DNA of 64,000 nucleotides, from positions 1 through 64,000 of the forward strand of contig CAWDKY010000029.1 in the NCBI GenBank assembly GCA_963802945.1, in the 5' to 3' direction. The notes below the pieces were generated by a model, which had not been told where the DNA came from, ran no database searches, and saw only the letters and a list, made by a program, of their open reading frames with translations. Each line of letters opens with the position of its first letter. Position 1 is the first letter of the stretch. Shown here piece after piece: positions 81-33,217 of the stretch. Both the position numbers and the translations under genes were made by a program. This DNA is from an uncultured delta proteobacterium. GTDB lineage: Bacteria > Desulfobacterota > RBG-13-43-22.

Positions 81-674
81 TTACCAGACCATCTGGAATC
101 GGGTCATGATGGCCTGCTCGTAACCTTGCCTTTGCGGCGTGGTCCCGACGCTGACAGTGATCGGGTTATCAAAGGTGGTATAATAGGTTAGCTGGATCCT
201 AACTACGTCATTTAGGTACCAATTTAGGCCGAAGCTACAGCCCGCAGTCCCATTGGTATATAGATGGGTGGGATCCGCAACTCCCAGGATACTTTTGTCC
301 ATCTCCAACCATTCATAACGTCCTACGAGTTGAATGGCACCGGTTCCTCCTTTGCCAAAGACAAACGGGTTTGTAGGGGTGACTGCCTGAGGTAGCCCAT
401 CTTTCCAGGGTTGTTGCTCACCAGTCAGGAACCAGCCCAAGGAGACATATCCCGAGTTGCCGCCAAAGTTTGCCGTAGTTTTGCCATTATTCAGACCATT
501 TAACTGAAGGGTGTCATATTCGGATTTAAGGGATACGGGGCCAACCATCCAGGCCAGTTCAGCCCCCAATCGGGTTAGACTTCCATTCTCTTTATCGGCA
601 ACGTCTATTTCCTCTCTTACCTTATACTGAGCAAGGCGGGAGTTGTCTTCAATATCTGGGGAAAACAGGGACAA
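81..674 (-). pseudogene. C-terminal part of an OprO/OprP-like (phosphate-selective) porin, 5'-truncated
   Basis: Motifs GYVSLGWFLTGE, QLVGRYE, FGLNWYLN and a terminal aromatic residue (RFQMVW). No signal peptide, and about half the expected length. Confidence 0.6.
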
Positions 675-3817: not shown

Positions 3818-3855
3818 ACACTCCTCCATTTTTGCAACAGCGATCCGATTCCCAA

Positions 3856-6800: not shown

Positions 6801-7005
6801 AGAAGCGCTCGAAGCGGCTGGTGATGTCGGTTTCGATCTGCTCGGGGGGCATCCCTGAGTAAAACGTGGCCACGACCACCACCGGAATGTTCATAGAAGG
6901 GAACATGTCGACCGGCATCCGGTTCAGGCTGGTGACCCCCACCACGAGAATGAAAAGGCTGACGACGATGATGAAATACGGATTGCGGATTGCAAAACGA
7001 GACAT
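3856..7005 (-). CDS. RND efflux permease (AcrB/CusA-like), split into three ORFs by two frameshifts (~4670, ~5600)
   Basis: MSRFAIRNP start, DNSVVVLENI, FFPRTDAGQF, GIAVSNSILIV, RLRPVLMTSLATIIGLLPMAL. Confidence 0.9.
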
Positions 7006-7008
7006 GGT

Positions 7009-8196
7009 TTAGTTCTCCTGGTGGCCGTTCGCCGAGGGTGCTCTGCCCAAGGTCGTGACCTTGGGCTGCACTTCCTGGCCGGCCTGCAGGCCGGAGCGCT
7101 CGCCGATCACGACGAGGTCCCCTTCCTTCAGCCCGGAAAGGACTTCCACCTTGTTGGCAGTCTCCAGCCCGAGGGAGACAAGCCGGACCTCGATCCGGTT
7201 GCCGGTTGTCACCACCATTACTCGCCCACTATTGCCGTTCGCTCCTTCCTTGGGTTGCTGGGAGGCTTCGCCGCCGGTCAAATCGACCGCGGTCACCGGA
7301 ATAGCTAGACACCTTGTCGCGCCGGTTGAGGTTTAAACTCACTTCCGCGTACATTCCCGGAACCAAGACCATCTTCGGATTCGGCACATCGATCTCGGTG
7401 TCCATGGTGCGCGTGCTAGTTGGAAAGTTTGCTGGTGAAACGGGCAACCTTGCCGGAAAACGCACGGTTGAGGGTCGGGACGCGCACCATCGACCTGCTG
7501 GCCGATATGGACGGTGGGAACGGCCGACTCGGGAACTGGGACAATGAGCCTGAGCATGCTGTTTTCGGAGAGGCGCACCAGGGGCATGGCCTGGGTCTGG
7601 GAGGCGGTGCCGGCCTGAATCATCGAGCCGATGTCCGCATAACGTTTGGTCACCACGCCGTCGAAGGGGGCGGTCACCCGCGAGTAATCGAGCATCGTTT
7701 TGATCCTCCCCAGTGCGGCTCTCGCCGCTGCAACCTGGGCCTCCGCCACCAAGTCCCTGCTCCTGGCATCGTCGATCTCCTGCTGGGCCACCAATCCTGG
7801 TCTCTGGGCCGCAACCTGGGAAAGCCTTTTGAAGGAGAGATCTGCGATGTCATGCGCCGCTTGCGCCCGGCGCAATTCGTCCTTACCCACCGTTAGGTCA
7901 TCCGCCATCTCCGGGACTTCCAGCACGGCCAGCAACTGGCCCTTTTTCACCCGGTCCCCGATATCCACATAGATGGCCTTGACGTACCCCGCTACTTTGG
8001 CCATTACCTCAATCTCCTGAAACGGCCTCAACTCGGCGGTCAGGCTCAGGTCCCGCGACAGGTCTTCCACGGCGGCTTTTGCCACGGCCACGGTCACCGC
8101 TGTTTTCTCACTACCTGTCTTGGAACAGGCAGCGACGAATAGGACGGTAATAGCGATTGCCATTGTGTATGCCGCAAGTGCAACGAATCTTGACAT
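7009..8196 (-). CDS. RND efflux periplasmic adaptor (MFP), several frameshifts at 7300-7490
   Basis: Lipobox VAAC, KVAGYVKAIYVDIGDRVKKGQLLA, TAPFDGVV, TRTMDTEIDVPNP-LVPGMYA and VEVLSGLKEGDLVV, spread over three frames. Confidence 0.85.
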
Positions 8197-8441
8197 GGGT
8201 TTTCCTCTTATGAAGGAGGGAGTTGTATAAATCATCTGAATTCTCCGTAACATACGTCCGGGATTCTTATATATTTTTTTGGAAACTATGTCAATTTTGA
8301 TACGATTGTCAATACAAATTTTTTTATCACGGATTCAATACGTTCAGTGATCAATAAGAGTCGATTAATCCCTATTCCCTAAACATTTATTCAGGTTTCA
8401 TAAACTACAGCCGGTAAGTCCGTTTTATTAATGACAGGTTA

Positions 8442-9360
8442 TTATTTTTCTTCACCTGCTTCACCGTATTGCTCTTTGATGAAATCTTTGCTGTTGGCAA
8501 GGCCTTCTTTACGGGCCTGTCCAACTTTTAGAAATTTCCCGACCATGAGCAGGTGCGCTTCCTTGGGCAGTTCCTTATAGCTGATCTCTTCTAAAAAACG
8601 GCTCACGGTGCTGGTGATGACTTTTTGTTGTTCCCGATCACCGGCATGGTTTACCACAGCAACAGGGGTGTCTTTTGGATAATGACGTTTCAGTTGTGCG
8701 AAGAGTTTGGGATAATTCAGATGCATGGTGTAAAATATCATCGAGGTTCGGGTGGCCATCAACTTCTCGTTGGTATCGGCGCGACCGGGCCAATCCGACA
8801 TGGTCAAAATGACTGAACTGGTGTTCCAGCCGTAAGGTGGACTCATCTTGACCGCCGCACTGGCCGCCTGGAAGGCCCCGACTCCGGGAATAATTTCTGA
8901 AGGGAAATCTTTGGGCAACATCTCTAGATAAAAGGTGTTGCCGAAAATCATAGGATCCCCCCACTGCAGGGAGGCCACATTTTTACCTTTTTCCACTGCT
9001 GACTTTATTTTTTCTATTATCTCCTGGCGGAGTTTGGCATTTTGAATGGCCCTTTCCTTTTCAGCCGGATTTTTAATTTATTTGGGATCCGTTCCATAAT
9101 AAACCCTGATACCGGGGCCAAGGAACCAAACTTCCTTGGTGCCGATCAGTTTTTTCCAGGCGTCCTGATCCCTTGGTTCTTCGAGGAGAATGATATCGGC
9201 CTGCTTAACACATTCCGCGCCACGGATGGTTAGAAGGTCCGGGGTGGTGCCCATTCCAACGATTAAAAATTTGCCTGAAGCCGCCAATACGCCACCAGAT
9301 AAGAGAAAAAGGAAAATTAGGGTCCCCAAGGATGATCCGACCTTTCATTTTTTTCGGCAT
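8442..9360 (-). CDS. Tetrapyrrole (corrin/porphyrin) methylase family protein with apparent signal peptide; in-frame TAA at 9078-9080 and an indel near the start
   Basis: FLIVGMG-PDLLTIRG, LQWGDPMIFG and IIPGVGAFQAA motifs. ORFs 9078..9329 and 8442..8996 are in the same frame. Hydrophobic N-terminus ending VLA-A. Confidence 0.75.
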
Positions 9361-9424
9361 TTTTCTTCTCCTTTTTATTCTGGGTCATTATTCGAAGGGT
9401 TAGAAAGAATTGGTAAGAGAGTGA

Positions 9425-10171
9425 CTATGACTCCAAGCGATAAATGATGGGAATAACCAGCCGAGCCTCACCAGGCGGCTTTGGGAAGGGGGCGGTGTCC
9501 TTAACGGTCTCTATGGCACTCTTATCCAGTATGGTAAAACCTGAACTTTGAATGATCTTGAATTCTCTGACGGATCCGTCTGCCGTAATGATAAAGGAAA
9601 GAAGGACTTTCCCTTGCCAGCCCATGCGCCGTGCCATGTCAGGGTAGTTGATGTTCCTGAGAATTTTATCTCGAATATAGGCAAAGTGACTTTTTAAATA
9701 TTTTGCCTTAGCCGATTCGTTCCCACCATCCGAATTTCCCAGGCCTGAGCCTGTTCCCGACCCCTCTTTTGACCCTCCGGGGGTTCCAGGGGATCCCTCT
9801 TTGATAGACTTTGAACCGGTCACCATTCCAAGGCCAAGAGAACTGCCTCCTGGGTCTTGGGCTTCCGGGAGTTTCACCACTGCTGGAATTTCCGGGGAGG
9901 GTGATAGATTGGGCCTTTCTTCCGGCAATCTGGGAGGTCCTTTTTCCTTTAAGGCCTGACGGGCCTTGGGCTTAATCGGTTTTGTTTTTATACCAGGCGT
10001 TGGAGCCTGCGGCTCGACCTTTTTGGCATGGAATTCCGGTTTACGCAAATTGAAATCCAATACCGTCAACTTTTTAGATTGACCGATGAAGATGCTTAGA
10101 ATGATGACAACGACAAGAATCAGGCTGTGAAGCAGAAAGGATATTTGGAAGGCCCTGGTCTGGTAATTCAC
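9425..10171 (-). CDS. tonB: Energy transducer TonB
   Basis: N-terminal TM helix with SxxLH, Pro/Lys-rich linker, YPDMARRMGWQGKVLLSF and SSG-ILDKSA. Confidence 0.9.
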   Translation of the reverse strand: MNYQTRAFQISFLLHSLILVVVIILSIFIGQSKKLTVLDFNLRKPEFHAKKVEPQAPTPGIKTKPIKPKARQALKEKGPPRLPEERPNLSPSPEIPAVVKLPEAQDPGGSSLGLGMVTGSKSIKEGSPGTPGGSKEGSGTGSGLGNSDGGNESAKAKYLKSHFAYIRDKILRNINYPDMARRMGWQGKVLLSFIITADGSVREFKIIQSSGFTILDKSAIETVKDTAPFPKPPGEARLVIPIIYRLES

Positions 10172-10548
10172 GGTCCTTCCTCGGTCTGGAGACTGATGCG
10201 GGAAAAATCCAAGCCCTTGAGGACATCCAGGACACTGACGAAGTTCTGCAGGATGATGCTGCGGTCGGCCCTAATCAAAACAGGGACTTTCTTGTTCAGG
10301 GAACTCAGGTCGGTTTTCAATTCTTCCAAAGATACGGGTTTGGAATTCAAATAGATCTTTCCGGCCCGGTCGATTTCAATGGTCTGGGTTTTCAGGATTT
10401 CCCCTGCGCTTCGATGGGCTTTGGGCAGATCCATGGGAATCATACCGCTGGCGATAAAGGAAGAGGTGGTGAGCACAATGGTCAGGAGGACCAGCATGAC
10501 ATCCACTAGGGGAATGACATTGATATAATCAAACTCCTTTTCTTCCAC
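10168..10548 (-). CDS. exbD: Biopolymer transporter ExbD
   Basis: INVIPLVDVMLVLL and VLIRAD motifs. Confidence 0.92.
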   Translation of the reverse strand: MEEKEFDYINVIPLVDVMLVLLTIVLTTSSFIASGMIPMDLPKAHRSAGEILKTQTIEIDRAGKIYLNSKPVSLEELKTDLSSLNKKVPVLIRADRSIILQNFVSVLDVLKGLDFSRISLQTEEGP

Positions 10549-10963
10549 GTTCGATCTCCCAGTTCATAAGCAGGACTTTAACTTTTCTAAGCAGAAAATT
10601 GTATAAAGAGACGGAGGGAATGGCCACCAAAAGGCCGATGGCCGTGGCCTTCAAGGCCAGGGCCAGACCGACCATGATCTTGCCCGTGTCCATAAAACCC
10701 TCTTGTCCGATCATATAAAAAGTCAGCATGATACCCAGGACCGTTCCCAACAGACCGATATAGGGGGCATTGCTGCCTATGGTGGCGATGAGATGGATTT
10801 TTTTGGTGAGTTCCAACTCCAGGCTCTTTTGGTCCGGGAAGGCCTCCAGTTTTATATGTTTATAGACATGAAACCTTTCGATGGCAATCCCTACGGCCAT
10901 CATACTTAAGAGGATCAAAAATCCTATGATCCCATAATCGACAACAACTTTAAGCCATTCCAT
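10529..10963 (-). CDS. exbB: TonB system energizer ExbB
   Basis: ATIGSNAPYIGLLGTVLGIM and ALKATAIGLLVAIP. Confidence 0.92.
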   Translation of the reverse strand: MEWLKVVVDYGIIGFLILLSMMAVGIAIERFHVYKHIKLEAFPDQKSLELELTKKIHLIATIGSNAPYIGLLGTVLGIMLTFYMIGQEGFMDTGKIMVGLALALKATAIGLLVAIPSVSLYNFLLRKVKVLLMNWEIERGRKGV

Positions 10964-11159
10964 TTTTAACTTTCTTAGACCTTTGGTAATAACGTATGTT
11001 TAAAAATAGTGTCAATTTAAAGATTGAGTATTCTGTCCGGTTGAGCAGATAATACTTAACATGAAAGAGGTCGAGGGTTCAATGGATATTTTTGGAAAGT
11101 TAAACCATTGAACCTCGAATCCTGTCCCGTCGACGGCGGGATTGGCCCTTCTTGTTTTT

Positions 11160-13241
11160 CTAAAATTTTGCTGAAACCCCTACCCAAAAGCTTCGTCCCG
11201 CGGCAGGATAGCCAACTTCCGGTGTGTAGTTTGCGTCAAAAATATTAGTGACGGCCACATAAACCTCATAATGTTTCAGGAAAGGCTGGGTAATCTTGGC
11301 ATTAAATACCGTATAATCGCCCGCCTTGAGCGTGGCCAGATTCGGGCTGGCTGGGGTCGGCAGTTGGGAGTAAGTTTCTCCGACGTAAACCATGTTGAAA
11401 TCAAGCTTAGTTTTAACCTGAGGAACCACGTATTGGACCCCTAAGTCCACTTTATACGGGGGGACATAGGTCACATCGTCGGATACCCTTCCGGCACTCT
11501 GGTTTTGAGCATTTTCATAAGTGAAGTCGGCCCGAAGGGTCAGACCATCGAGCGGGTAGGCCTCGGCATTCACCTCAAAGCCGGCCAGTGAGACACTTTG
11601 ATAATTTACATAGGAAGTAATCGGGGGTGGTCCGTAATTGACAATCATGTCGGTAACATCATAATAGAACAAGGATAGTCCGGCCTTAGCAAAAGTAGAG
11701 AAGGGGCGGGATACTCCCAGGGTGTAATTCCAACTATCTTCCGCTGACAGATTCGGGTTTCCGCTTTTGGTGTTGTAGAGTTCGAACAAAGTGGGGAAAC
11801 GACTCTTGTGAGCCACAGAACCAAAAAGTTTAGTGGCGTCGGAAAAGGTATAAGTCAGACCCAACATAGGATTAAACGCACTGGCATTCATGGTAGGGTT
11901 TTGGCCCATATTTAGGAAATTCCCGTTGTTGTCCGTGTTGATTTTCTCGGTTTTGGTCACATCAAACCAGTCGTAACTGATACCGGCCACCACTGAGAAA
12001 TTTTTAACCAGGTTGAATTCATTTTCCGCTCCCAAAGAACCGGTGTAGGAGTCGGATGTCTCAAAAGGCAGGTAGGTGTCGGCTCGATCCTGGTGATTAT
12101 CCGTTTTGAAATGAAGAGAAAATCGTAGGATATCCCAATTGACCGGTTGATAATCGGCAAAGAGAGAACCTCCCAGCACGTAATCCTTATAGGTGCTGTC
12201 TGCGAATGGGCCTGTGTAGGTCTGGTTCAAATAGGAGTCCAGATCATCGACGTGGTTGTGATAAAAAAGCTTGGCCTTTAAGGTCACTGTATCAGAAACT
12301 TTTTGCTTGGCATCCAGATCAATCCCCCAATCCGTGTAGTCGGGGATACGGGCAAATTGAGAAAAATACGGTCTGCTGTCAAAGACCATCATGGAATTCG
12401 TTGAAGGAGACCAGCCTTTAGACATGTCCAGATAGTGAAAATTCAGATAATATTCAGAACCTAATTGAGGTTCTATCCCGAACTTGGCCCAAAGATCATT
12501 GTTCTCATAATTCGAATTGACCCTTGTGCCTGTGCCCTGTAAGACTGATGTTGTGGTTGGGCCCGGCCTGAACATAATCGTGGTGGGTGTAGGTTGAAAA
12601 TTACCGGATAGCTGGTAGCCGTCCGATTTCCCATAAGTGTAATTCAACCAGTAATTGAAGATACCGACCTTCATTCCATTAGTGACGGAATAACGCTGAG
12701 TATTGTCCGGGCCGAACTCCATAGAGGCGCTGGTATAGGGTTTTTCCGAAGGTTTCTTGGTGATAATATTGATGACCCCGCCCAAGGCATTGGCCCCATA
12801 GATGACGGAGGCCGCTCCTTTGGTGATTTCTATTTTGGCAATATTCTCAGTGGGGATCTGGTTCAAGTCCAATATATGATAAAAGGTTTCATAAAAGGGT
12901 ACTCCATCGATTAAAACCAGAATCTCGTTTTGAGCAAAGCCGTTCATATAAATATCGGGCTGGTTCTTTGCCCCGGTGGTCACTCGGAACCCGGGGGCGT
13001 TGGCTAAGGCCTCGGCCACGGTTTTGCTGTTGGTGGCCTTGATATCCTCGGCGGTAATTTCTTCAATGATGGTCACTTCCTTGACCTTGGCTTTTTCCGC
13101 AGAGACCACGATCTCGCCCAGGTTATAGACCTCGAATTCATTGGGCGGCGTGGTGGCCGTATCCGCAGCCCAGCCAATGCTAAAAACAAACAAAACAAAC
13201 AGCCCCAGCGACAAAACAATTAAATTTTTCCTTTTTTTCAT
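11160..13241 (-). CDS. TonB-dependent outer-membrane receptor
   Basis: Signal peptide, TonB box EIVVSA, plug motifs LIDGVP and IEITKGAASVIYGANALGGVINIITKK, C-terminal Phe. Confidence 0.93.
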   Translation of the reverse strand: MKKRKNLIVLSLGLFVLFVFSIGWAADTATTPPNEFEVYNLGEIVVSAEKAKVKEVTIIEEITAEDIKATNSKTVAEALANAPGFRVTTGAKNQPDIYMNGFAQNEILVLIDGVPFYETFYHILDLNQIPTENIAKIEITKGAASVIYGANALGGVINIITKKPSEKPYTSASMEFGPDNTQRYSVTNGMKVGIFNYWLNYTYGKSDGYQLSGNFQPTPTTIMFRPGPTTTSVLQGTGTRVNSNYENNDLWAKFGIEPQLGSEYYLNFHYLDMSKGWSPSTNSMMVFDSRPYFSQFARIPDYTDWGIDLDAKQKVSDTVTLKAKLFYHNHVDDLDSYLNQTYTGPFADSTYKDYVLGGSLFADYQPVNWDILRFSLHFKTDNHQDRADTYLPFETSDSYTGSLGAENEFNLVKNFSVVAGISYDWFDVTKTEKINTDNNGNFLNMGQNPTMNASAFNPMLGLTYTFSDATKLFGSVAHKSRFPTLFELYNTKSGNPNLSAEDSWNYTLGVSRPFSTFAKAGLSLFYYDVTDMIVNYGPPPITSYVNYQSVSLAGFEVNAEAYPLDGLTLRADFTYENAQNQSAGRVSDDVTYVPPYKVDLGVQYVVPQVKTKLDFNMVYVGETYSQLPTPASPNLATLKAGDYTVFNAKITQPFLKHYEVYVAVTNIFDANYTPEVGYPAAGRSFWVGVSAKF

Positions 13242-13260
13242 TCTTTTTCTCCTTTTATTG

Positions 13261-14568
13261 TTATTGATTTTTGGAGTTAGCCCAAAAGAAATAAAATGGT
13301 ATTCCTGAGACAGCTAAGAGAAGCCCCATAAGGGAGGTCGAAGGCTTTTCCATAAAAATTTGTTTGCTGATCCAGAGATAAGCAAGGGTAAATAAAACAG
13401 GAACCAGCGGATAACCCCAGGTGAGGTAAGGCCTAAGAAGTCCCGGCTTTTGCCATCGTAAGATCAGGTGAGAGGCGCCGGTGGCCGTGGAGATGATCAG
13501 CATGACAAAAACAACATAGCTCAAAAGCTGGCTGAAAGTTCCCAGGCAGACCAAAAGAACGGCCAAAACGGTTTGACTTAAAATGGCCAGATAAGGTGAA
13601 TGAAACCGAGGGTGGAGTCTCTTTAAAAACGACCAAAAGATTTTATCCTCGGACATAGCGTAAAAGATCCTTGCTCCGGCCATTATGGTGGCGTTGATAC
13701 TGGAACAAATAGCCAGCATGATAGCCAGAGAAATCAACATGGAGATCGTGGAGTTAAAGAGAGCCGTAGCGGTAATTTGTCCCACGTTAATCACCCCTTT
13801 GAGCTCGGTGAGAGGCAAGGCATAGAGATAGGTGACATTGATCGAGGTATAAAGGATTCCAACGATGGCAGTACCCAATAGCAACGAAAGAGGGATATTT
13901 CGCTCGGGCTTTTTGATTTCACTGCCCACGTAAGCCGAGGCGAACCATCCGCTGTAGGTGAAAATGATGGCGATCATAGCAGAGCCGAAGATTTTTGAAA
14001 AAGGAGGGGGTTGTGAGGAAGTGATTGAGAAGTGGTCCCAACTGCCTTTTCCAAAAATAAGGCCTCCGGCAATAAAGGCCACCAGAAGAACTATAGAACC
14101 TAAGGTAAAAAAGTCCTGAGTCGTTCCGCCCCAGCGGATGCCCCGGTAATTGATCCATGAGAAAAAAAAGATTATTCCCAAGGCCAAGCCCTTTTCCAAT
14201 AAGGGATCATTCAAAGCCAAAAGGGGTTTCATGTAGCTTACCAAAGCCAGAGACAGGGCGGCTATTGAGCCGGGGATAATGATCCAAAAATTAACCCATC
14301 CCAGAAGAAAGCCGGCCCAGAGGCCATAGCTGGCCTTTAAGAACTGGTAGTCTCCTCCGGCCTTCGGAAACATTCCGGCCAGTTCGGCATAGGTCAGGGC
14401 TCCAAAGAAGGTTATCAAGCCACCCAAGATCCATATTCCGATAAAAAGCCAGGGGCGGGGAAGTTCACCGGCCAAAAAGCCGCTGGTGGTGAATATTCCT
14501 GCACCGACCACATTACCAACGACCAGTAAGGTAGCATCCGAAAGGGTCAATTCGCGTTTGAGTTCCAT
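13261..14568 (-). CDS. APC family amino acid permease
   Basis: VVGAGIF, YAELAGMFPKAGG, YSGW, EIKKPERNIP and ARIFYAMS; about 12 TM helices. Confidence 0.92.
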   Translation of the reverse strand: MELKRELTLSDATLLVVGNVVGAGIFTTSGFLAGELPRPWLFIGIWILGGLITFFGALTYAELAGMFPKAGGDYQFLKASYGLWAGFLLGWVNFWIIIPGSIAALSLALVSYMKPLLALNDPLLEKGLALGIIFFFSWINYRGIRWGGTTQDFFTLGSIVLLVAFIAGGLIFGKGSWDHFSITSSQPPPFSKIFGSAMIAIIFTYSGWFASAYVGSEIKKPERNIPLSLLLGTAIVGILYTSINVTYLYALPLTELKGVINVGQITATALFNSTISMLISLAIMLAICSSINATIMAGARIFYAMSEDKIFWSFLKRLHPRFHSPYLAILSQTVLAVLLVCLGTFSQLLSYVVFVMLIISTATGASHLILRWQKPGLLRPYLTWGYPLVPVLFTLAYLWISKQIFMEKPSTSLMGLLLAVSGIPFYFFWANSKNQ

Positions 14569-14581
14569 TGGCCCGTTTCCT

Positions 14582-16351
14582 TTATTCCAGACAGGACCCC
14601 ACGTAGATCATCCCCAGCCAGGCTTCCTTTTCTTCGTTTTCTTTTTCAACTGCTTCGGCGGCCTTGTCCAAAGTGGCTTTGATCAAGCGTTTGCTGTTGG
14701 AATAGCCGACCCGGATGGCAAAGGTTACTGGGGTGGAGCCCGGGTAATATTTTTTCAAAAGGGGGATAAGATCGTTGATCTCCTTCAGTCCCATAAAGAT
14801 AGCCAGGGTATCTCCTTTTTCAGCCACGGCCCTAAGCATGGCGGGGTTGTCTCTTAAGGACCAGGGTGAGGACAATATGATTGAGCCTTTGCAGGCCATC
14901 TCTTTGCCGATCATGGCATTGGCGGCATTAAAGGCGCTGATGCCGGGGATGAATGTTTTTTCATGATCGGCAAACCTGGCATTTATTCCCCTAAGACTTC
15001 CGTAAATGGACGGATCGCCGTACTCCAGGAGGGCTACGGTTTTACCTTTACTCAGTTCCTCACGGATCATCTTGACGGCTTCGCCGACCTTTCCTTCGAT
15101 TAATTTTTCCCGTTCTTCATGGGATATTTTTTCGTGTTCCTTGCCGTAGATGGGCTTGGGCATCAGCACCTTAAAAGGATCAAAGAGCACCGGCCGGTGG
15201 CCGAAATAAAAGGCGTAACGTTTGGCAATATCCTCGGAGCAGGCCACGGCATCGGCTTTGCTTAAGTAACTGAGGGCCTCCAGGGTCAACAGGCTGGTGT
15301 CGGCACAGCCCACACTGATGATGTAAACCTTGGGCGATTTTTTTAAGTTGATCACCTCGACCTTGGCCACGGCCTTGACATCCCGATCAGCCGAAAGATC
15401 GTCCGGGAGGACCAATTTAAATTTTCCATCTTTTTCTATGGGTTGGTTGTCGGTCCGGTCGGCAATCAAGATCCGATGGCCTAATGGGGCCAAAAACAAT
15501 TCCCCGAAAGACAAGAGGGAACGATAGCCGTCCGGGGAAGAGACCAAGAAAACCGAATTGATGTCCATTTCCGCCCCGGCCTTTTCCAAAAGTTTGATCA
15601 ACGGAACGCCGCCGGCTTGCTTTAAGCCGTGGTATCCCTTCCCATCTCCAACCTCTTTAACCATAACCTCCGTATGAGGAAAGGCCGATAAATCGGCGAA
15701 TGCCAGAGGAGTCTTGACCGATCCGGAAACGGTAAAAGAGGGGGAGTGCAACTTGTCTTTTTTTTGAAGTTCTAGTTTGGGATTTAAATCGACAACCTCA
15801 ATATCGGTCACCTCTTCCAGAGAACGGTCCGTGTAAAAGTCGTTGGCCACAACCAGTTTGGGGAAACCGATCGGCCTTTTAAGCGGACTAGACCACTTGT
15901 CGGAAACCTCGGATTTATGACAGAAGGCACAATTCCGGCCTGGCATAATCGGAGAGGCGGAAAAAGCGATGATGATCTCGGCAGGATTCTTGTAAAAGAC
16001 CTCTCCCCAGGAAAGGGTGGCCTGTTTCCCGGCCTTGTTCCGGACGACAATGGCCATATCCAGCGGTTTAAAAAAATGGGTTTCTTCTTTTTGCACATAA
16101 GCCAGTTCAAGTATTGTGCGCAATGGAACTCCCTGGTAATTGAACACGCCGAGGAAGTTTTTATTCCGGTCTACCTCATTGAGACGGACGTTGATCGATT
16201 GAACTTTAGACAGGTCATCAAGGGAAAGGCGGATTGGCTGTTTAACCGCCCCGGAAATACTAAGACTCACCGATGCAGCGGCCCATCCCTGCATCTGGAA
16301 AATAAGGATCAAAATAAAACAACAAGATAGTATTAAAATATTTCTTCTCAT
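14582..16351 (-). CDS. Exported fusion protein: two molybdopterin-oxidoreductase-like domains with a CxxCH motif plus a C-terminal tetrapyrrole methylase domain
   Basis: Signal peptide (GWA-A). Repeated SG.VK.P..L...DL / GVPL..LLE.A / DGY / D...DR.V units. CAFCH. Methylase motifs VYIISVG, EYGDPSIYG, IPGISAFNAA. Confidence 0.75.
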   Translation of the reverse strand: MRRNILILSCCFILILIFQMQGWAAASVSLSISGAVKQPIRLSLDDLSKVQSINVRLNEVDRNKNFLGVFNYQGVPLRTILELAYVQKEETHFFKPLDMAIVVRNKAGKQATLSWGEVFYKNPAEIIIAFSASPIMPGRNCAFCHKSEVSDKWSSPLKRPIGFPKLVVANDFYTDRSLEEVTDIEVVDLNPKLELQKKDKLHSPSFTVSGSVKTPLAFADLSAFPHTEVMVKEVGDGKGYHGLKQAGGVPLIKLLEKAGAEMDINSVFLVSSPDGYRSLLSFGELFLAPLGHRILIADRTDNQPIEKDGKFKLVLPDDLSADRDVKAVAKVEVINLKKSPKVYIISVGCADTSLLTLEALSYLSKADAVACSEDIAKRYAFYFGHRPVLFDPFKVLMPKPIYGKEHEKISHEEREKLIEGKVGEAVKMIREELSKGKTVALLEYGDPSIYGSLRGINARFADHEKTFIPGISAFNAANAMIGKEMACKGSIILSSPWSLRDNPAMLRAVAEKGDTLAIFMGLKEINDLIPLLKKYYPGSTPVTFAIRVGYSNSKRLIKATLDKAAEAVEKENEEKEAWLGMIYVGSCLE

Positions 16352-16366
16352 TAGGCTGTTGCCTCC

Positions 16367-17158
16367 TTAAGTCTTTTTTCTTTGTGGGAAATACCAGAAC
16401 ATCAATAAGCATAACACCGCAAAACCCGGCAGGATCAACGGCAGACCGGGATCCTTTTTTATAATCAGGTGTAGTTCGGGGGGTGCAAAAGTTTTTTGTG
16501 AATCCGGTCTTATGAAGGCATCCAGATGGAAACTCAGCCCTTGCCAATGTATGGGATTGAGAATGCTGAGTTCCCTTATTTCTGTTTTTTCAGGGCCCTG
16601 TATTTTTAACACAACCGTGCATTGTTTGATTACCCCATTCAATGCTGCAGGAGCCATGTAACGCTCGAACTTCTGACTGATCGCTTCCACATTTCTTCCC
16701 TGGGGCAGAGATATTTTTTGATTAAATTTAAGAGGAATGTTTTGTTGAAAGCCGATGATCAGGCTTAAAAAATGTCCGGAAAGCATGACCAGGAAGCAAA
16801 GATGAATAAAAGATGGGGTAATTTTTATGGAAAAAATCCGTAACCCCAATTGATTCTTTTTGGGCCACAGTTGGGTTATTCGTTTTATGGCGCAGACGAT
16901 CGTGTTGGCTCCCAGAAAAAATAAAAGGGCCAATAATGTCCCGAACCACCAGATTCTCCCCGGTTGATATTGTCCGTATTTTATAAACCAATCCTGGATC
17001 AGAGAATGATTTAAAGGCATAAAAAGCTTGGGATTATATTGGATGAAGTAAGCGCCGACGGCCAGATTCATAGAAATGGAGAAGAGGAGCCAGAAATTGA
17101 CTTTTACCTCACCGCAGAAATCCCATAATTTTTTAAACATCAGGGTACTAACCTCCAA
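16367..17158 (-). CDS. ResB/CcsB-like cytochrome c biogenesis protein (short)
   Basis: Three N-terminal TM helices with FIHLCF His, a soluble domain, then DPG before the last TM helix. Coupled to the CcsA-like gene. Confidence 0.65.
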   Translation of the reverse strand: MEVSTLMFKKLWDFCGEVKVNFWLLFSISMNLAVGAYFIQYNPKLFMPLNHSLIQDWFIKYGQYQPGRIWWFGTLLALLFFLGANTIVCAIKRITQLWPKKNQLGLRIFSIKITPSFIHLCFLVMLSGHFLSLIIGFQQNIPLKFNQKISLPQGRNVEAISQKFERYMAPAALNGVIKQCTVVLKIQGPEKTEIRELSILNPIHWQGLSFHLDAFIRPDSQKTFAPPELHLIIKKDPGLPLILPGFAVLCLLMFWYFPQRKKT

Positions 17159-17906
17159 TCCTGGGAAACATCATACTGAACTGATAACTATAGGCAAAAA
17201 TAAAGACCAGGAAAAAACCGGCCAAAGAGAACCAGGCTTCGTGCCTACTGTTCCAGGTTGGAAAATATCTCAAATGTAAAATGGCCGCATAATAACACCA
17301 GATAGAGGCGGATTGCAGGTGCTTAGTGCTCCAATGGATGGGGGTGGCCCAGCCCAAATAGGCCCAATAGGCCCCGACTACCTGGGAAATACTGTAAAAA
17401 ATAAATCCCCAGATAATAAAGGAATTAAAAATCCTTGCTTCATCTTTTCCCTTGAGGTGAAAGATAGCGAACCAGGCACCCAGGATAAAACAGGCATGCG
17501 CAAGGGTATCAACACAGAAATATAAGGGGACAAAGAGGGTTCCATGCTTCGGGTCCGGGGGAATAATTCCCTTAGGGAAGATCAGGGCCATAAGGGAAAA
17601 GAGGCAGATCGGGATAATTATTGAATGGATTACCGTTTTATTTTTTTCATCTTTGGAAAACCATTGTATCCCCAAACTAATGAAGGCCATCGACCAGGGC
17701 AAGAAATAAAGTTCATCAAAAATGGGATTTGGAAGCCAGATTCCCAGGAACAGGCCTCTGCTTAATTGAAAAAGGGTATGAAATATGAATCCTATCAGTA
17801 AAGCAGCCAAGCTGGTTTTGGGACGATTAAAAAGATAGGAAACCAAACCCAGCAGATAAAAGCCCAGAGCGATAGTGAAGGCATACTGGAAAATTAATGT
17901 AATCAC
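17148..17906 (-). CDS. CcsA/ResC-like cytochrome c synthase
   Basis: Polytopic membrane protein with GAYWAYLGW-x5-W (WWD-like domain) and flanking His residues (LAHAC, ILHLR). Confidence 0.8.
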   Translation of the reverse strand: MITLIFQYAFTIALGFYLLGLVSYLFNRPKTSLAALLIGFIFHTLFQLSRGLFLGIWLPNPIFDELYFLPWSMAFISLGIQWFSKDEKNKTVIHSIIIPICLFSLMALIFPKGIIPPDPKHGTLFVPLYFCVDTLAHACFILGAWFAIFHLKGKDEARIFNSFIIWGFIFYSISQVVGAYWAYLGWATPIHWSTKHLQSASIWCYYAAILHLRYFPTWNSRHEAWFSLAGFFLVFIFAYSYQFSMMFPRIGG

Positions 17907-17975: not shown

Positions 17976-18001
17976 TATGTTATTTTTGACATATATGTCA
18001 A
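17976..18001. promoter_or_regulatory. Putative operator upstream of the ccsA-TBDR operon
   Basis: TATGTTA-TTTT-TGACATA (17976-17993) overlapping the perfect 16-bp palindrome TTGACATATATGTCAA (17986-18001), which contains a -35-like TTGACA. Confidence 0.55.
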
Positions 18002-18315: not shown

Positions 18316-18675
18316 TCAGGAGTTCCATAGCCCCTTGGCTTTTTTGCTTACTTCTTCGCTTCGGCTTTCTAATATTTTAAAAAATGAATCTTCTGTTATG
18401 GTTTTTATTTCCTCAATTGTTTTACCTTGAATTAAAGCACAAAGAATCTCAACGGCGACGTTGGTGGTGGGGTCACAGGTGCATAAATATTTTATGGCCT
18501 CAATTTTGCCGTTGAGGATATTGATGTATAGATGCAAATAATCCCCGATATTTCCGCAAATAGGAATATTTTCACTGACGGTATCCAGAAATATGGAAGG
18601 ATTTTCCAGAGAACCGGCATGTTCAAATCCTGTCTTAAGTAATCGACGATAATATTGGATAACGGCCTGGTCCAT
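18316..18675 (-). CDS. IscU/NifU-N-like scaffold or sulfur-transfer protein (probable C-terminal frameshift)
   Basis: HAGSLEN, PICG-GDYLHLYI and YLCTCD...EILCALIQGKTIEE. Lies directly downstream of a cysteine desulfurase. Confidence 0.75.
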   Translation of the reverse strand: MDQAVIQYYRRLLKTGFEHAGSLENPSIFLDTVSENIPICGNIGDYLHLYINILNGKIEAIKYLCTCDPTTNVAVEILCALIQGKTIEEIKTITEDSFFKILESRSEEVSKKAKGLWNS

Positions 18676-18736
18676 TACGCTCCGAAAGTTCTTTTTTGTC
18701 ATTCCGGTGAAAAAGATTATTCTTGATTACCAAAAA

Positions 18737-18850
18737 CGTCATTCCGGACGAGTACACCTATGGGGACGGATCCGGAATCCAGAAATTGATAATAAAATGA
18801 AAAAGCCCCTGCATCCGGCTCTCGCCCGAAGCGGGCTTGGCCGGTGACGA
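18737..18850. repeat. GTCATTCCGG-type palindromic repeat element
   Basis: CGTCATTCCGG...GGATCCGGAATCCAG...CTGCATCCGGC...CCGGTGACG nested inverted repeats. Confidence 0.55.
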
Positions 18851-18894
18851 ATGATAACATCGCCTCGAAGTGGGGGTGACGACTATTTGTGAAA

Positions 18895-20298
18895 TTAATA
18901 AAAATTTATATTGGAAATTTTTAAAAGGTAGCTTCGCTCCTCGAATATTTCCTGTAACGTCTCCAAAAATATCCGGCATTCTTCCATAGTGTTATAGAAA
19001 TAGAGGGACAGACGATAAACCATTCTGTGTTCCTCGGGCAGCCGGGGTTTGGTCCAGCCCTGCCCGAATACCTTATTAAAATAGGAATGGACACAGAAAA
19101 GGCCGTCTCTGATCATGATATTATTCTTGGCATTCAGTTCTTCCGTAATCCCTACGGCATTTGGTCTTTTGATCTCGAAGGTTAGAATGCCTCCCCTTTT
19201 TCCGGCGTCGTGGGGGCCGATAATTTTGAACCAGCCTGTTTCTCCATAACGTCCGAGGAGTTCATCGGTGAGAAAACCATTCAACCGCCGTTCCCAGGCA
19301 TCAATTTTGTCCAGGCCGACTTGCCGTAAATATTGCACGGCGGTGGCGGCGGCAATCTGGCCCGGATAATTCTGCACCCCGACCTCAAAACGCTCCGGCG
19401 GATCTAAAAGAAGGTATCCTTGATAAGTCGTGTCATGTACAACACCGCCACCCAGGAGTACCGGTTCAATGGCGTCTTGGCAACTCCTTCCTCCCGGCGC
19501 TTTCCACCCTAAAAGTTCTTTTTTGCCGTACAGAATACCCACACCGCGGGGGCCGCACATCTTGTGGATGGAAAAAGCCAGGAAATCTACATCCAGGTCT
19601 TGAACATCCATAGCCTTGTGCGGTGCTGTCTGGGCGGCGTCCAGCAGGACTTTTGCACCATAACGATGGGCGACATTGATGATTGCTTTGGCCGGTATGG
19701 TATAGCCGGTGATATTCGAAGTGTAGCCCATACTGACCAAGCGCACGGGGCTGTTTTCCAATTTTCGCCTGAAGCTGGCAAGATCGAAGGTGTCGTCTTC
19801 CCCCGGCTCGCAATAATCGACCTTGATCAGCCCTTTTTCCTGCAATCGGAGCCAAGGGATGAGATTCGAGTTATGTTCCCGATCGGTGAGCAAAACAACG
19901 TCGCCGGGACGGAAGGGAAAACCGAGGGCGATCATGTTAATGGCCTGGCTGGCATTGGCGGTGAAGATGATTTCCTTTTCGGAGCGGGCATTGATGAAGT
20001 CGGCGATAATCCGGCGCGAGCCTTCTATTCCCCTTTCAGGATCGCCGTCAATCCGCGCGGCGACTTCATCGGCAAACCAATGCCGGCTCCTGTGGCCTCC
20101 GCAGGCCGGATATTTTTCATAATAATCCGTCATCGCCCGGATGACCGGCTTGGGAACCAGCGTGGTGCAAGCGTTATCGAAATAGATGGGAAGCTTGCCG
20201 TTTCGTTTTATATTCAGGGCTGGGAAATCTTCTCTGATCGATTCCCAAGAAATGTCGCCGTTACCGTTAAAAGAAGAATTCGCCATAGGCGGTATCAT
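18895..20298 (-). CDS. Cysteine desulfurase, SufS/CsdA-like (class V aminotransferase)
   Basis: IYFDNACTT, EHNSN, DAAQ, PLP lysine in SIHKMCGP, catalytic Cys loop RDGLFCVH. Confidence 0.88.
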   Translation of the reverse strand: MIPPMANSSFNGNGDISWESIREDFPALNIKRNGKLPIYFDNACTTLVPKPVIRAMTDYYEKYPACGGHRSRHWFADEVAARIDGDPERGIEGSRRIIADFINARSEKEIIFTANASQAINMIALGFPFRPGDVVLLTDREHNSNLIPWLRLQEKGLIKVDYCEPGEDDTFDLASFRRKLENSPVRLVSMGYTSNITGYTIPAKAIINVAHRYGAKVLLDAAQTAPHKAMDVQDLDVDFLAFSIHKMCGPRGVGILYGKKELLGWKAPGGRSCQDAIEPVLLGGGVVHDTTYQGYLLLDPPERFEVGVQNYPGQIAAATAVQYLRQVGLDKIDAWERRLNGFLTDELLGRYGETGWFKIIGPHDAGKRGGILTFEIKRPNAVGITEELNAKNNIMIRDGLFCVHSYFNKVFGQGWTKPRLPEEHRMVYRLSLYFYNTMEECRIFLETLQEIFEERSYLLKISNINFY

Positions 20299-20324
20299 AG
20301 GAAATGAATTACCAAAAGGTCAAA

Positions 20325-20371
20325 TAAAAATCGGCGAGCCGTCGTAATATAATACGTCTCGACTCGCCGAT
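20325..20371 (-). terminator. Hairpin or terminator after the aldehyde oxidoreductase gene
   Basis: ATCGGCGAG...CTCGCCGAT followed by a T-run on the minus strand. Confidence 0.55.
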
Positions 20372-20384
20372 ACCTGGTTCTCGA

Positions 20385-25768: not shown

Positions 25769-27991
<2,223 letters not shown>

Positions 27992-33063: not shown

Positions 33064-33217
33064 GAATGGTGAATAAGTACTTCGAATGCTATGCCGTTTC
33101 GGCTGCCCTTCACCGGGGAGGTTAATGAATGATCTTGACACACTTGTTAAATTAAAATGACTGTGTCAGGAAAAGGGGTATTCAAAAAGCAAGGCTTAAC
33201 CATGTGCGGGTGCATTA

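Follow-up and report, generated by a model that had tools for sequence, protein, structure and literature searches.

The window, a 64,000-nucleotide stretch from an uncultured delta proteobacterium, carries a row of eight intact genes followed by a broken ninth, which encodes a second methylase (Table 1). The first-pass annotation described nine co-oriented genes. All nine are encoded on the minus strand, with the coordinates it gave, but the last one is disrupted here. In transcription order, the intergenic gaps are -11, 15, 13, 19, 196, -20, -4 and 64 nt.

Table 1. Genes, motifs and candidate sites in the window
Feature	Position	Strand	Basis
CcsA-like membrane protein, 252 aa, divergent, haem-handling family	17148..17906	-	PF01578, E 2.6e-13
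ResB-like membrane protein, short, 263 aa	16367..17158	-	PF05140, 19 bits, below cut-off 24.6
Exported fusion, 589 aa	14582..16351	-	Pfam, AlphaFold models, Foldseek; 451 homologues
Domains of the fusion	residues: signal peptide 1-25; SUOX/PruR-like module 1 ~27-190; module 2 ~205-336; class III methylase 341-589	-	
CAFCH haem c attachment motif, module 1 variable loop	15917..15931, residues 141-145	-	translation
APC-superfamily permease, LAT (amino-acid exchanger) type, 435 aa	13261..14568	-	PF13520, E 3.6e-54
TonB-dependent receptor (TBDR), 693 aa	11160..13241	-	plug + barrel, Pfam
exbB	10963..10529	-	Pfam
exbD	10548..10168	-	Pfam
tonB	10171..9425	-	Pfam
met2, second exported class III methylase-like gene, disrupted	8442..9360	-	frame break near start + TAA 9080..9078
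Perfect 16-bp palindrome TTGACA-TATA-TGTCAA, candidate operator	17986..18001	.	overlaps -35-like hexamer, ~80 bp upstream of ccsA-like start
Second palindrome-like site, 1 mismatch	8297..8312	.	promoter-like TTGACA-16-CATAGT; just before GC-content jump
Anion-selective porin fragment (Porin_O_P)	81..674	-	PF07396, E 3.9e-15

Recurrence of the operon and its flanks

We collected 128 related loci, 51 from genomes and 77 from metagenomes, belonging to Thermodesulfobacteriota, Nitrospirae and Spirochaetota. Many of these loci repeat the identical gene order; such an arrangement lies far outside what chance would produce. The TBDR is present in 81 of the 128 (51 of the 64 loci of at least 12 kb), and the permease gene adjoins the fusion in 72/128. 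The proposal of a conserved, syntenic, extracytoplasmic system stands. Genes for the TBDR, the permease and the methylase fusion are found together in many loci, and an N-terminal export-type hydrophobic segment is kept in 45/45 full-length fusion homologues. Likewise, our literature search found no description of this operon, in agreement with the earlier statement that no described pathway has this architecture. The operon, conserved among anaerobic bacteria but so far unstudied, encodes an outer-membrane importer and an exported haem protein that combines cofactor-binding with methylase-like parts.

The permease has 6f2g and 9h76 as its best solved relatives (E 3e-60), together with the eukaryotic y+LAT1, xCT and LAT2. 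It is dispensable, since the minimal operons described below lack an APC gene. The TBDR does not reach the cut-off of any NCBIfam family (siderophore 171 bits, hemin 167, B12 154). Its best PDB match by sequence is BtuB, restricted to the plug. A second tonB lies on contig C30, with 99% protein identity, and its exbB and exbD obtain the same Pfam scores.

The gene met2 was seen in 12/128 loci. In the window, the ATG at 9360, which is preceded by a good ribosome-binding site, is in a different frame from the gene body, and an intact homologue has Thr at the position of the in-frame TAA. The rest aligns with this homologue without gaps over 287 residues (72% identity). In seven genome loci (L002, L003, L005, L008, L013, L036, L044) the homologue forms one uninterrupted ORF of 299-317 aa, and the closest related locus, L001, keeps a remnant only. 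The breaks may stem from sequencing error, since other genes in this assembly also look broken.

The perfect palindrome is the only such match in the 4.37-Mb genome. With at most one mismatch, it recurs shortly before the first operon gene in L003-L009, L013, L044, L016 and L025. In L008, L013 and L044, a Porin_O_P gene and a TupA-like gene follow a second palindrome-like site. By comparison with L008 and L013, where the porin comes after the second site, the porin fragment of the window may originally have been the next gene downstream of the operon. The genome scan gave further sites only at chance level, and the palindrome is absent from loci with a Mo/W-type regulator. Consequently, no regulon links the operon of the window to tungsten.

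The exported fusion and the CcsA/ResB-like pair

Pfam places PF00174 at residues 26-92 of the fusion and PF00590 at residues 341-564 (E 3.1e-31). The first-pass annotation had proposed two molybdopterin-oxidoreductase-like domains. Although Pfam detects one, the AlphaFold model of residues 27-338 (pLDDT 92.2) contains two modules, both matching sulfite-oxidase-fold structures, and so agrees with that proposal. Foldseek retrieved SorA, YedY/MsrP (1xdy), sulfite oxidase and PruR for these modules. In the homologue alignment they have no invariant Cys, the Mo-ligand Cys is absent, and no Tat signal was found in the fusion homologues.

PruR is described as a periplasmic pterin binder of Agrobacterium, with a SUOX fold without the Mo-ligand Cys (PMC11194511). 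The modules of the fusion are likewise periplasmic, Sec-type and Cys-less, with Foldseek TM-scores normalised to the target (TMt) of 0.64-0.68 for 7rkb, 7kom and 7kou. This likeness holds at the level of the fold in a predicted structure (Foldseek E 2e-5, 12-20% identity). Unlike PruR, the fusion has tandem modules, a methylase domain and usually a haem loop, and no DcpA-type partner.

CbiF/CobM are the nearest relatives of the methylase domain (4e16, E 1.6e-21 by sequence; CbiF/CobM/CysG, E 2.9e-13 by Foldseek). The invariant residues of the domain are G348, D351, L442-P447, G470, S472-A473, N475, N478-A479, G513 and T515-L516. They sit in segments aligning with CbiF-type methylases, which we take to be the SAM-binding motifs of class III methylases. 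The first motif reads G-C-A/G-D in 40/45 homologues. Judged by its sequence, the domain is a CbiF-like class III methylase with intact SAM motifs. It shares its fold and conserved motifs with CbiF/CobM and the other class III (tetrapyrrole) SAM methyltransferases. Unlike these, it is exported behind a signal peptide, joined to two SUOX-like modules and without cobalamin gene context. The fusion also scores far below the CobM equivalog cut-off of NCBIfam (69.8 against 259.65 bits).

Translation confirms the single CAFCH motif reported before, and its loop has low confidence in the full-length AlphaFold model. Conservation of CxxCH is partial. The motif is kept in 78/112 intact fusion homologues (32/45 in a smaller set) and missing from the remainder, and on the tree it was lost at least about six times.

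The CcsA-like protein reaches 45.5 bits against the NCBIfam CcsB equivalog cut-off of 187.6, and no PDB relative was found by sequence. Residues W181, W186, W192, H196 and H211 are invariant (n=23 homologues), with W-S-x-K/R-H in place of the canonical WDPKE. The ResB-like protein has no NCBIfam family match. Its gene is always paired with the ccsA-like gene, and C89, H119 and H129 are invariant, with H211 in 95% (n=22 homologues). The pair shares with System II CcsBA (ResB/ResC) the Trp-rich domain of the CcsA family, the conserved His and the ResB-like partner. It differs in its size (~250-260 aa), in the changed WWD motif and in scoring below the NCBIfam cut-off (CcsA-like) and the Pfam ResB cut-off (ResB-like). 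The genome encodes another ccsA, closer to the canonical form, on contig C16 (24% identity).

The first-pass annotation had proposed that this pair is the operon's own lyase and makes the fusion a c-type cytochrome. We compared both traits in the 56 intact homologues that are flanked on each side by 2.6 kb or more. Motif and pair occur together in 12, the motif alone in 28, the pair alone in 16 and neither in 0. So, 16/16 fusions without CxxCH keep the pair, and 28/40 with CxxCH do without it. On the tree, 0/4 independent contrasts change in the same direction. In 6/8 cases, loci without CxxCH showed no other CxxC[HK] target. CxxCH and the local pair do not co-vary, and the proposal of an own lyase fails for this reason. 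This is a further difference from CcsBA.

Tungsten- and molybdenum-type genes around the fusion

Genes for TupA-like proteins, TOBE ATPases or regulators with an HTH and a Mo/W-binding domain occur within 10 kb in 19/51 genome and 26/77 metagenome loci (45/128 overall). Among loci of at least 12 kb the fraction is 35/64, and about half of these long loci are without such a marker at that distance. In NCBIfam, the neighbours match best to TupA (256 bits), to WtpC (298 bits) and, in the C-terminal binding domain, to the MoeA-type protein PRK14498, all below the curated cut-offs. The first-pass annotation had missed this link to tungstate uptake genes.

The minimal operons (L091, L094, L098, L099, L102, L111) have a divergent regulator, then the TBDR, the fusion, a gap of 1.2-1.4 kb and TupA. 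A TOBE ATPase follows TupA in four of the six. The gap is a TonB gene in L091, the only locus checked. These operons contain neither APC nor ccsA/resB. With tungstate uptake and regulation by TupABC/TunR (a name from work on Desulfovibrio), the operon shares TupA-like binding proteins, a TOBE ATPase and an HTH regulator with a Mo/W-type domain, whose genes flank or continue it in 45/128 loci. To our knowledge, Tup systems have been described without a TBDR or periplasmic enzyme upstream.

Unlike these systems, the window has no tup gene adjoining the operon. In L001, the DNA after tonB matches contig C1 of this genome at 97%, and this contig carries tupA, tupB and a TOBE ATPase. The tup link of the window would thus rest on relatives and on a presumed contig join.

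A Mop-type aldehyde oxidoreductase is encoded in the window, L001 and L027. An FdnGHI-like formate dehydrogenase lies directly upstream in L002, and FmdE is present in L018. Loci of Geobacter and Syntrophorhabdus contain FmdE, DUF364, a FecCD/ABC importer and an exported deaminase lipoprotein. Overall, an exported CDA-type deaminase adjoins the fusion in 8/128 loci, and a FecCD-type importer is found in 10/128. DUF364 has no match in this genome. It has been reported in a modABC operon of Methanococcus maripaludis, cofit with nifH (bioRxiv 10.1101/2024.03.05.583561). One family member is reported to cyclise a SAM derivative (PMC12930334), and a flavin or pterin derivative was proposed for a DUF364 structure (PMC2954201).

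Possible cargo of the system

Our best explanation, held tentatively, is that the cluster may be a TonB-dependent module acquiring tungsten or molybdenum on an organic carrier, with periplasmic processing. We prefer Mo/W scavenging over B12 or haem uptake because of the neighbours in other genomes. The TBDR with ExbB-ExbD-TonB would bring a scarce W/Mo organic complex across the outer membrane. The exported three-domain protein would capture and process it, with two Cys-less SUOX/PruR-type ligand-binding modules, one c-type haem in most lineages and a class III methylase domain whose SAM-type pocket is intact. The freed oxyanion would pass to TupA and the Tup ABC transporter, as their adjacency in relatives suggests. 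Where APC is present, an amino-acid-sized organic part may cross the inner membrane through the LAT-type exchanger. The CcsA/ResB-like pair would be an accessory haem-handling unit, not limited to haem attachment to CxxCH. As the carrier, a molecule of the pterin type or a small chelator derived from SAM and resembling an amino acid is most likely.

Several observations count against the W/Mo reading. In the window no tup gene adjoins the operon, about half of the long loci have no Mo/W marker within 10 kb, the TupA and WtpC matches stay under the curated cut-offs, DUF364 has no match in this genome, and no regulon ties the operon of the window to tungsten. By sequence, the TBDR appears about equally similar to the haem, siderophore and B12 receptor families. 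In addition, an APC gene, as a possible source of SAM, is missing from the minimal operons. We know of no periplasmic SAM supply for a SAM-dependent enzyme, nor of a tungsten or molybdenum carrier molecule for such anaerobes.

Salvage or sensing of a pterin or Mo/W-cofactor is unlikely, and is the best of the alternatives. Here the cargo, a pterin or the pyranopterin cofactor itself, would be taken up for its organic part, the SUOX-like modules would bind pterin, and the metal link would be regulatory only. The PruR fold and Moco-domain fold of the two modules (PMC11194511), their lack of an invariant Cys, the exported deaminase and the ligand proposed for DUF364 (PMC2954201) are in its favour. 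However, the loci are without pterin or folate transporters and pterin biosynthesis genes, the direct operon link is a TupA-type oxyanion importer, and the similarity to PruR is confined to the fold.

Iron acquisition is improbable. The cargo of the TBDR would be haem or a ferric siderophore, and the periplasmic protein, with its haem, would serve as reductase or processing enzyme. The scores of the TBDR against the siderophore and hemin receptor models (the latter over the whole length), the c-haem motif in most homologues and the FecCD-type importers fit this idea. Against it, the loci with scanned neighbours have no Fur- or DtxR-type regulator or iron gene beside the cluster, and the genome has its iron-type regulator on contig C30, at another TBDR locus. 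Moreover, the recurrent neighbours are Mo/W markers, and the haem motif was lost repeatedly.

We also give little chance to the first-pass model, in which a tetrapyrrole (B12, haem, sirohaem, precorrin) is taken up, modified in the periplasm by a protein matured by its own System II lyase, and its product carried through the permease. The CbiF/CobM-like domain, the BtuB match, a CcsA-like protein above the Pfam cut-off and the frequent CxxCH speak for it. Nevertheless, the BtuB match covers the plug alone, and motif and pair show no co-variation. Upstream of the operon, 12 sources yielded no cobalamin riboswitch, and a canonical locus, cobU-cobS-cobC-TBDR-btuF-btuC-btuD, is present separately in the genome. 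A LAT-type amino-acid exchanger is an unlikely tetrapyrrole carrier, and in the minimal operons the fusion is coupled to TupABC instead of an ABC importer of the haem or B12 type. Within the substrates first listed, tetrapyrrole or B12 has therefore lost support, and the best fit is with pterin and metallophore.

An MsrPQ-like envelope redox system, in which the pair gives electrons to the SUOX-like protein for an envelope or periplasmic substrate and no uptake occurs, is very improbable: the YedY/MsrP fold and the pair kept in every assessable locus without CxxCH (as for a membrane haem partner) agree with it, but the Mo-ligand Cys and Tat signal are missing, most long loci have a TBDR, and many loci wholly lack ccsA/resB.

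Acquisition of tungsten or molybdenum on a carrier would resemble TonB-dependent metallophore uptake (siderophore, pseudopaline/CntO, lanthanophore). Both have a TBDR with dedicated ExbB-ExbD-TonB, a periplasmic processing protein, an inner-membrane metal importer and, in many loci, a divergent metal-sensing regulator. In contrast, the importer here is a TupA-type oxyanion ABC system, the architecture of the periplasmic protein is found in none of those systems, and the module is known without its carrier or the carrier's biosynthetic genes. Our literature search found no TonB-dependent tungsten route. If the W/Mo reading is true, the operon is part of the gene neighbourhood that serves tungstate/molybdate uptake in anaerobes.

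The operon and its exported fusion protein

Nine genes lie head to tail, and most of them overlap or sit 13-19 nt apart. Wider gaps are present before exbB (196 nt) and before met2, the gene for a second exported class III methylase-like protein (64 nt). The gene row of the first-pass annotation was borne out, except that its ninth gene, met2, is broken. The met2 ATG has a strong ribosome-binding site. However, its frame differs from that of the gene body, and an in-frame TAA stands where the intact homologue has threonine. The remainder aligns with this homologue without gaps over 287 residues (72% identity). Other genes are split in the same assembly: AcrB and HlyD in the window, and a TOBE ATPase on contig C1 of the same genome. 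An assembly error is therefore possible. Against it, the closest related locus (L001, with a 90% identical fusion protein) has lost nearly all of met2. Three public metagenome runs cover only small shares of the met2 stretch, and the contigs over the TAA site belong to relatives. The gene may be a pseudogene or the product of an assembly error, and the public reads do not decide between the two.

Features of the operon, the window and related contigs and loci (window positions unless another contig or locus is named)
Feature	Position	Strand	Evidence or remarks
Group II intron D1-D4 fragment	2206-2377		Beside the 60%-GC block
Block of ~60% GC (~46% around)	2524-8253		Outer-membrane efflux protein; AcrB split into 475 + 301 aa; truncated HlyD-type adaptor
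Split AcrB and HlyD genes	4676-8253		
Palindrome site, one mismatch	8297-8312		
Nine-gene operon	17906-8442	minus	
CcsA-family protein	operon	minus	Pfam PF01578, E 2.6e-13
ResB-like protein	operon	minus	Weak Pfam match, 19 bits (cut-off 24.6)
589-aa fusion	operon	minus	Pfam Oxidored_molyb (residues 26-92), TP_methylase (341-564); CAFCH motif at residues 141-145
APC permease	operon	minus	Pfam
TonB-dependent receptor (TBDR)	operon	minus	Pfam, plug and barrel
ExbB, ExbD, TonB	operon	minus	Pfam
met2	ATG 9360; TAA 9080-9078	minus	Pfam, two TP_methylase pieces
Perfect 16-bp palindrome	17986-18001		~80 bp upstream of the first gene
NifU/SufU-like, SufS-family cysteine desulfurase, Mop-type aldehyde oxidoreductase	18316-23054	minus	Mop-type oxidoreductase 785 bits vs cut-off 1100; all three 92-94% identical in L001
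Catalase-peroxidase, KatG-type	25769-27952		Two peroxidase domains; second segment ~61% GC
Type ISP restriction-modification enzyme, then DUF4062 and two TPR proteins	29596-36043		N6_Mtase + Type_ISP_C, 1155 aa
tRNA gene	42673-42744	minus	
tmRNA gene	52647-52997	minus	215 bits
Radical SAM protein and Memo/AMMECR1 fusion	contig C1 (L054) 6443-9000		Downstream of tupABC
tonB copy	contig C30 (L052) 79750-81286		TonB protein 99% identical to that of the window (exbB, exbD and tonB at 9425-10963); exbB and exbD beside it with the same Pfam scores
c-di-AMP riboswitch ahead of Kup potassium transporter	L002 17849-17982		Smithella-like MAG; directly downstream of the operon

The window presents further features of its own. 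The KatG-type gene is unusual for the core genome of a strict anaerobe and may be acquired DNA. The stretch with the type ISP enzyme looks like a defence island.

By sequence, the fusion is a member of a large unnamed family. Of the 7999 candidates that were scored, 451 reach E <= 1e-3. Among the 120 matches listed, the lengths are 569-607 aa, and the names are at most 'hypothetical', 'SAM-dependent methyltransferase' or 'precorrin-4 methylase'. This protein has no NCBIfam model of its own; its best match there is CobM/CbiF, with 69.8 bits vs a cut-off of 259.65.

The signal peptide proposed in the first-pass annotation is conserved. All 45 full-length homologues carry an export-type hydrophobic segment at the N-terminus (simple hydropathy test). 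The pattern RR-x-hydrophobic-hydrophobic occurs in only 3 of these 45 N-termini, as judged by plain pattern matching rather than by SignalP or TatP. The two results together make export by Sec likely.

The AlphaFold model of residues 27-338 (31 sequences, pLDDT 92.2) consists of two similar beta-rich modules. Foldseek identifies them as the SUOX fold. It matches them to the sulfite dehydrogenase SorA (2c9x, E 1.3e-7), YedY (1xdy) and chicken sulfite oxidase (1sox). The PruR proteins 7rkb, 7kom, 7kou and 7kp2 also match, with target-normalised TM-scores of 0.64-0.68. No cysteine is invariant or near-invariant in residues 27-338 of the 31 sequences, and the conserved cysteines of the modules are those of the CxxCH loop only. 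Consequently, the modules lack the cysteine that binds molybdenum in true SUOX enzymes.

The C-terminal domain matches PF00590 with 109.4 bits (cut-off 27.8). It is closest to CbiF/CobM (4e16), with E 1.6e-21 by profile and E 2.9e-13 by Foldseek. In 14 sequences, G348, D351, L442-P447, G470, S472-A473, N475, N478-A479, G513 and T515-L516 are invariant, and the same stretches are invariant or nearly so across 45. We take them to be the SAM-binding motifs of class III methylases. The first motif is G-C-A/G-D in 40 of 45 homologues and G-P-G-D in the aligned CbiF-type sequences. The fusion differs from the named cobalamin and sirohaem methylases, since it scores far under the equivalog cut-off of its best match, CobM/CbiF, and has an export-type N-terminus, unlike a cytoplasmic enzyme.

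Gene neighbourhoods and tungsten or molybdenum genes

A genome scan with one genome per species gave 51 loci and a metagenome scan 77 more. We ran one query panel over all 128. The genome loci come from Smithella, Syntrophorhabdus, Desulfonema, Geobacter/Pelobacter, Nitrospirae and Spirochaetota MAGs. A TBDR lies beside the fusion in 81 of the 128 loci (51 of the 64 loci of at least 12 kb). The APC permease is beside it in 72 (38 of 64), the ccsA-like and resB-like pair in 52 (31 of 64) and a second methylase in 12 (11 of 64). The full gene order of the window recurs in 14 loci (L001-L008, L013, L044, L063, L065, L066 and L108). This recurrence means that the cluster noticed in the first-pass annotation is real and that its gene set is under selection.

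Eight loci (L018, L024, L104-L107, L109 and L125) have two full-length fusion paralogues in one operon, in the order TBDR - fusion A - ccsA - resB - fusion B - APC. Both paralogues are without CxxCH in the loci checked (L018, L104, L105, L106 and L109). Spirochaetota loci present a 353-aa paralogue with the two SUOX-like modules only, ahead of ccsA/resB.

Flanking genes were assigned with Pfam and NCBIfam scans, and a marker panel was searched by tblastn. A molybdenum or tungsten (Mo/W) marker lies within 10 kb of the fusion in 19/51 genome loci and 26/77 metagenome loci. It makes 45/128 in total and 35/64 among the loci of at least 12 kb. The markers are three. First, a TupA-like binding protein (best NCBIfam match TupA, 256 bits, under the cut-off). 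Second, an ABC ATPase with a TOBE domain (best match WtpC, under the cut-off). Third, a regulator joining an excisionase-type HTH to the binding domain from the end of MoeA-type proteins. With a single TupA-like locus in the 4.37 Mb of the window genome, adjacency by chance is negligible.

The smallest arrangement (L091, L094, L098, L099, L102 and L111) consists of a divergent regulator, then TBDR, fusion, a gap of 1.2-1.4 kb and TupA. The TOBE ATPase follows TupA in 4 of these 6 loci, and in L091, the one locus checked, the gap contains a TonB gene. This arrangement has neither the permease nor ccsA/resB. In L008, L013, L044 and others, an operon of the window type is continued by an anion porin and by TupA-like genes, two or three in number.

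No TupA, TOBE ATPase or Mo/W regulator adjoins the operon in the window. For the window genome, the link to tup is indirect and comes from comparing sequences. In L001, the DNA past tonB matches contig C1 with 97% identity, and contig C1 carries tupA, tupB and the TOBE ATPase. At the tup position of L001, the window presents the 60%-GC block with broken RND efflux genes and the group II intron fragment. Beyond it, a porin fragment lies at the contig end. Because L001 continues there into tup-bearing DNA, the block is an insertion, a rearrangement or an assembly chimera.

Upstream of the operon, the window and L001 share the Mop-type aldehyde oxidoreductase and the SufS- and NifU-like genes. 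Mop-like genes also flank the fusion in L027. An FdnGHI-like formate dehydrogenase is directly upstream in L002, and FmdE is present in L018. In the Geobacter and Syntrophorhabdus loci, the TBDR and the permease are replaced by FmdE, DUF364, a FecCD-type ABC importer and an exported CDA-type deaminase lipoprotein. One study places DUF364 in the Methanococcus maripaludis modABC operon and reports its cofitness with nifH (bioRxiv 10.1101/2024.03.05.583561). Another reports that one DUF364 family member cyclises methylated SAM (PMC12930334).

The tonB copy on contig C30 follows FmdE - TBDR - class I methyltransferase - Peripla_BP_2 - FecCD - ABC, and a DtxR/FeoA-type regulator adjoins it. A third, partial copy with FmdE is on contig C50.

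The perfect palindrome ahead of the operon overlaps a -35-like hexamer and occurs once in the genome. Eleven related loci also have it, with at most one mismatch, directly ahead of the gene that opens the operon. L008, L013 and L044 have a second site ahead of the porin/TupA genes. The palindrome is absent from the loci carrying the Mo/W-type regulator, so a different regulator would be involved. When the genome was scanned with a short degenerate form of the motif, 22 sites matched with one mismatch or none, about chance level. The scan revealed no regulon, as the genes at the six inspected sites are unrelated (thiamine, coenzyme A and others). Promoter counts from the promoter and terminator scan were near the shuffled expectation.

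The CxxCH motif and the CcsA/ResB-like pair

The first-pass annotation expected the CxxCH motif to be conserved and the pair to act as its dedicated haem lyase. Conservation is partial. CxxCH is present in 32/45 and 78/112 intact fusion homologues (two sets). The motif sits in a loop of variable length. In the lineages without CxxCH, this loop is shorter or is without both cysteines.

Co-occurrence was counted in 56 fusions with at least 2.6 kb of sequence on each side. The pair is adjacent to 12 CxxCH-bearing fusions and not adjacent to 28. Without CxxCH, the corresponding counts are 16 and 0. Thus, all 16 assessable CxxCH-less fusions retain the pair, and most CxxCH-bearing fusions are without it. 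On the tree, each trait changed at least 6 times, the states are clustered, and the pair tracks CxxCH in 0 of 4 independent contrasts. Given this clustering and only four contrasts, we do not propose an inverse relation and conclude only that the expected coupling is absent. Likewise, 6 of 8 CxxCH-less loci have no CxxC[HK] in any other ORF as an alternative client. Counts, contrasts and missing clients together contradict a dedicated lyase.

Both proteins of the pair have about 250-260 aa. The CcsA-like protein reaches 50.5 bits with PF01578 (cut-off 29.9) and only 45.5 with the NCBIfam CcsB model TIGR03144 (cut-off 187.6). The ResB-like protein matches no NCBIfam family. In 23 homologues of the CcsA-like protein, three tryptophans are invariant and the canonical WDPKE becomes W-S-x-K/R-H. 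Its invariant histidines are H196 and H211; the ResB-like protein has C89, H119 and H129 as invariant residues. The CcsA-like protein matches the Trp-rich CcsA-family domain of System II cytochrome c synthases in part, with an altered WWD motif, and the pair falls under the cut-offs of the NCBIfam CcsB model and of the Pfam ResB family. It is an atypical pair, and its persistence without a CxxCH client is new. The fusion protein offers a test case for the role of CcsA/ResB-like pairs without such a client.

Candidate functions of the cluster

In our tentative reading, the cluster would serve tungstate/molybdate uptake as an accessory front end, and we give this reading slightly less than an even chance. 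The analysis shows the parts with their folds and export signals, the synteny and the association with Mo/W genes. What is carried, in which direction and with what chemistry is inferred as follows. The TBDR would import the metal in a bound form. The exported fusion would bind and process the metal complex, and TupABC would take up the oxyanion. Where present, the LAT-type exchanger would move the amino-acid-sized organic part. For the carrier, we consider a ligand of pterin type, or one derived from SAM and resembling an amino acid, more likely than a tetrapyrrole. Three features suggest this: modules like those of PruR/SUOX, a SAM-type pocket, and neighbours that include the deaminase, DUF364 and FecCD.

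A more specific proposal seems unlikely to us. In strict anaerobes, a dedicated TonB-dependent route would bring tungsten or molybdenum on a pyranopterin-type cofactor or on a chelator made by DUF364-type enzymes. A periplasmic haem methyltransferase would strip the metal for TupABC, and the LAT-type exchanger would move an amino-acid-like co-substrate. The pyranopterin-type cofactor would come from other cells, and the chelator would be SAM-derived. If true, a SAM-type methylase would for the first time be known to act outside the cytoplasm. The exchanger, where present, would supply or remove the co-substrate.

Pterin salvage or sensing could instead be the main purpose. PruR is a small periplasmic pterin-binding protein, likewise without the Mo-ligand cysteine of SUOX enzymes (PMC11194511). 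An exported SUOX-fold module without cysteine is common to PruR and the fusion. The scanned loci showed no GGDEF/EAL (DcpA-type) partner gene of the PruR type.

Iron acquisition is another alternative. The TBDR scores about equally with siderophore, hemin and B12 receptor models, always under the cut-off, and its recurrent neighbours are the Mo/W markers.

The first-pass annotation also admitted a tetrapyrrole as the imported substrate, with uptake by the permease. The likeness of the methylase domain to CbiF/CobM is in its favour. The other observations oppose a tetrapyrrole or B12 substrate. Upstream of the operon, neither the window nor 11 loci have a riboswitch for cobalamin or of any other class; the c-di-AMP and nhaA-I riboswitch matches belong to genes outside it, and the c-di-AMP one in L002 is unrelated to the cluster. 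The TBDR resembles BtuB over the plug only, and it scores 127-154 bits with the BtuB equivalog models (cut-offs 600-836). Contig C37 of the same genome carries a canonical B12 locus of its own, cobU-cobS-cobC-TBDR-btuF-btuC-btuD. The riboswitch and the BtuF/BtuCD genes of cobalamin uptake are both absent at the operon. Finally, the APC permease (PF13520, E 3.6e-54) is, by its solved relatives, a predicted LAT-type amino-acid exchanger. These relatives are 6f2g (E 3.3e-60), which is the bacterial exchanger BasC, and also y+LAT1, xCT and LAT2. Such an exchanger is of the wrong size class for a tetrapyrrole.

An MsrPQ-like redox system is the weakest alternative: the fold is shared with the SUOX and YedY/MsrP molybdoenzymes, but their Mo-coordinating cysteine and Tat export are absent from the fusion.

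We also considered SAM/SAH exchange as the role of the permease and rated it low, because the minimal operons lack this gene.

The first-pass annotation knew of no pathway with such an architecture, and our literature search agrees. Over main texts mostly outside subscription journals, it found none, and neither the fusion nor a TonB-dependent tungsten route was described there. Systems that acquire metals with the help of TonB are already known as a kind. What is new is the link to tungsten or molybdenum in anaerobes. Likewise new is a periplasmic protein in which a class III methylase is combined with two Cys-less SUOX modules and a facultative c-haem. The fusion is also a test case for periplasmic activity of class III methylases.

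Syntrophs, metal reducers and organisms that degrade aromatic compounds depend for much of their energy metabolism on enzymes with tungsten or molybdenum, such as formate dehydrogenase, aldehyde oxidoreductases and benzoyl-CoA reductase. To our knowledge, the described uptake routes for these metals are only ABC importers for free oxyanions. If TupABC is directly preceded, in a widespread operon, by a TBDR and an exported protein without precedent, an unknown carrier molecule should exist, and these organisms would scavenge the metals in bound form.
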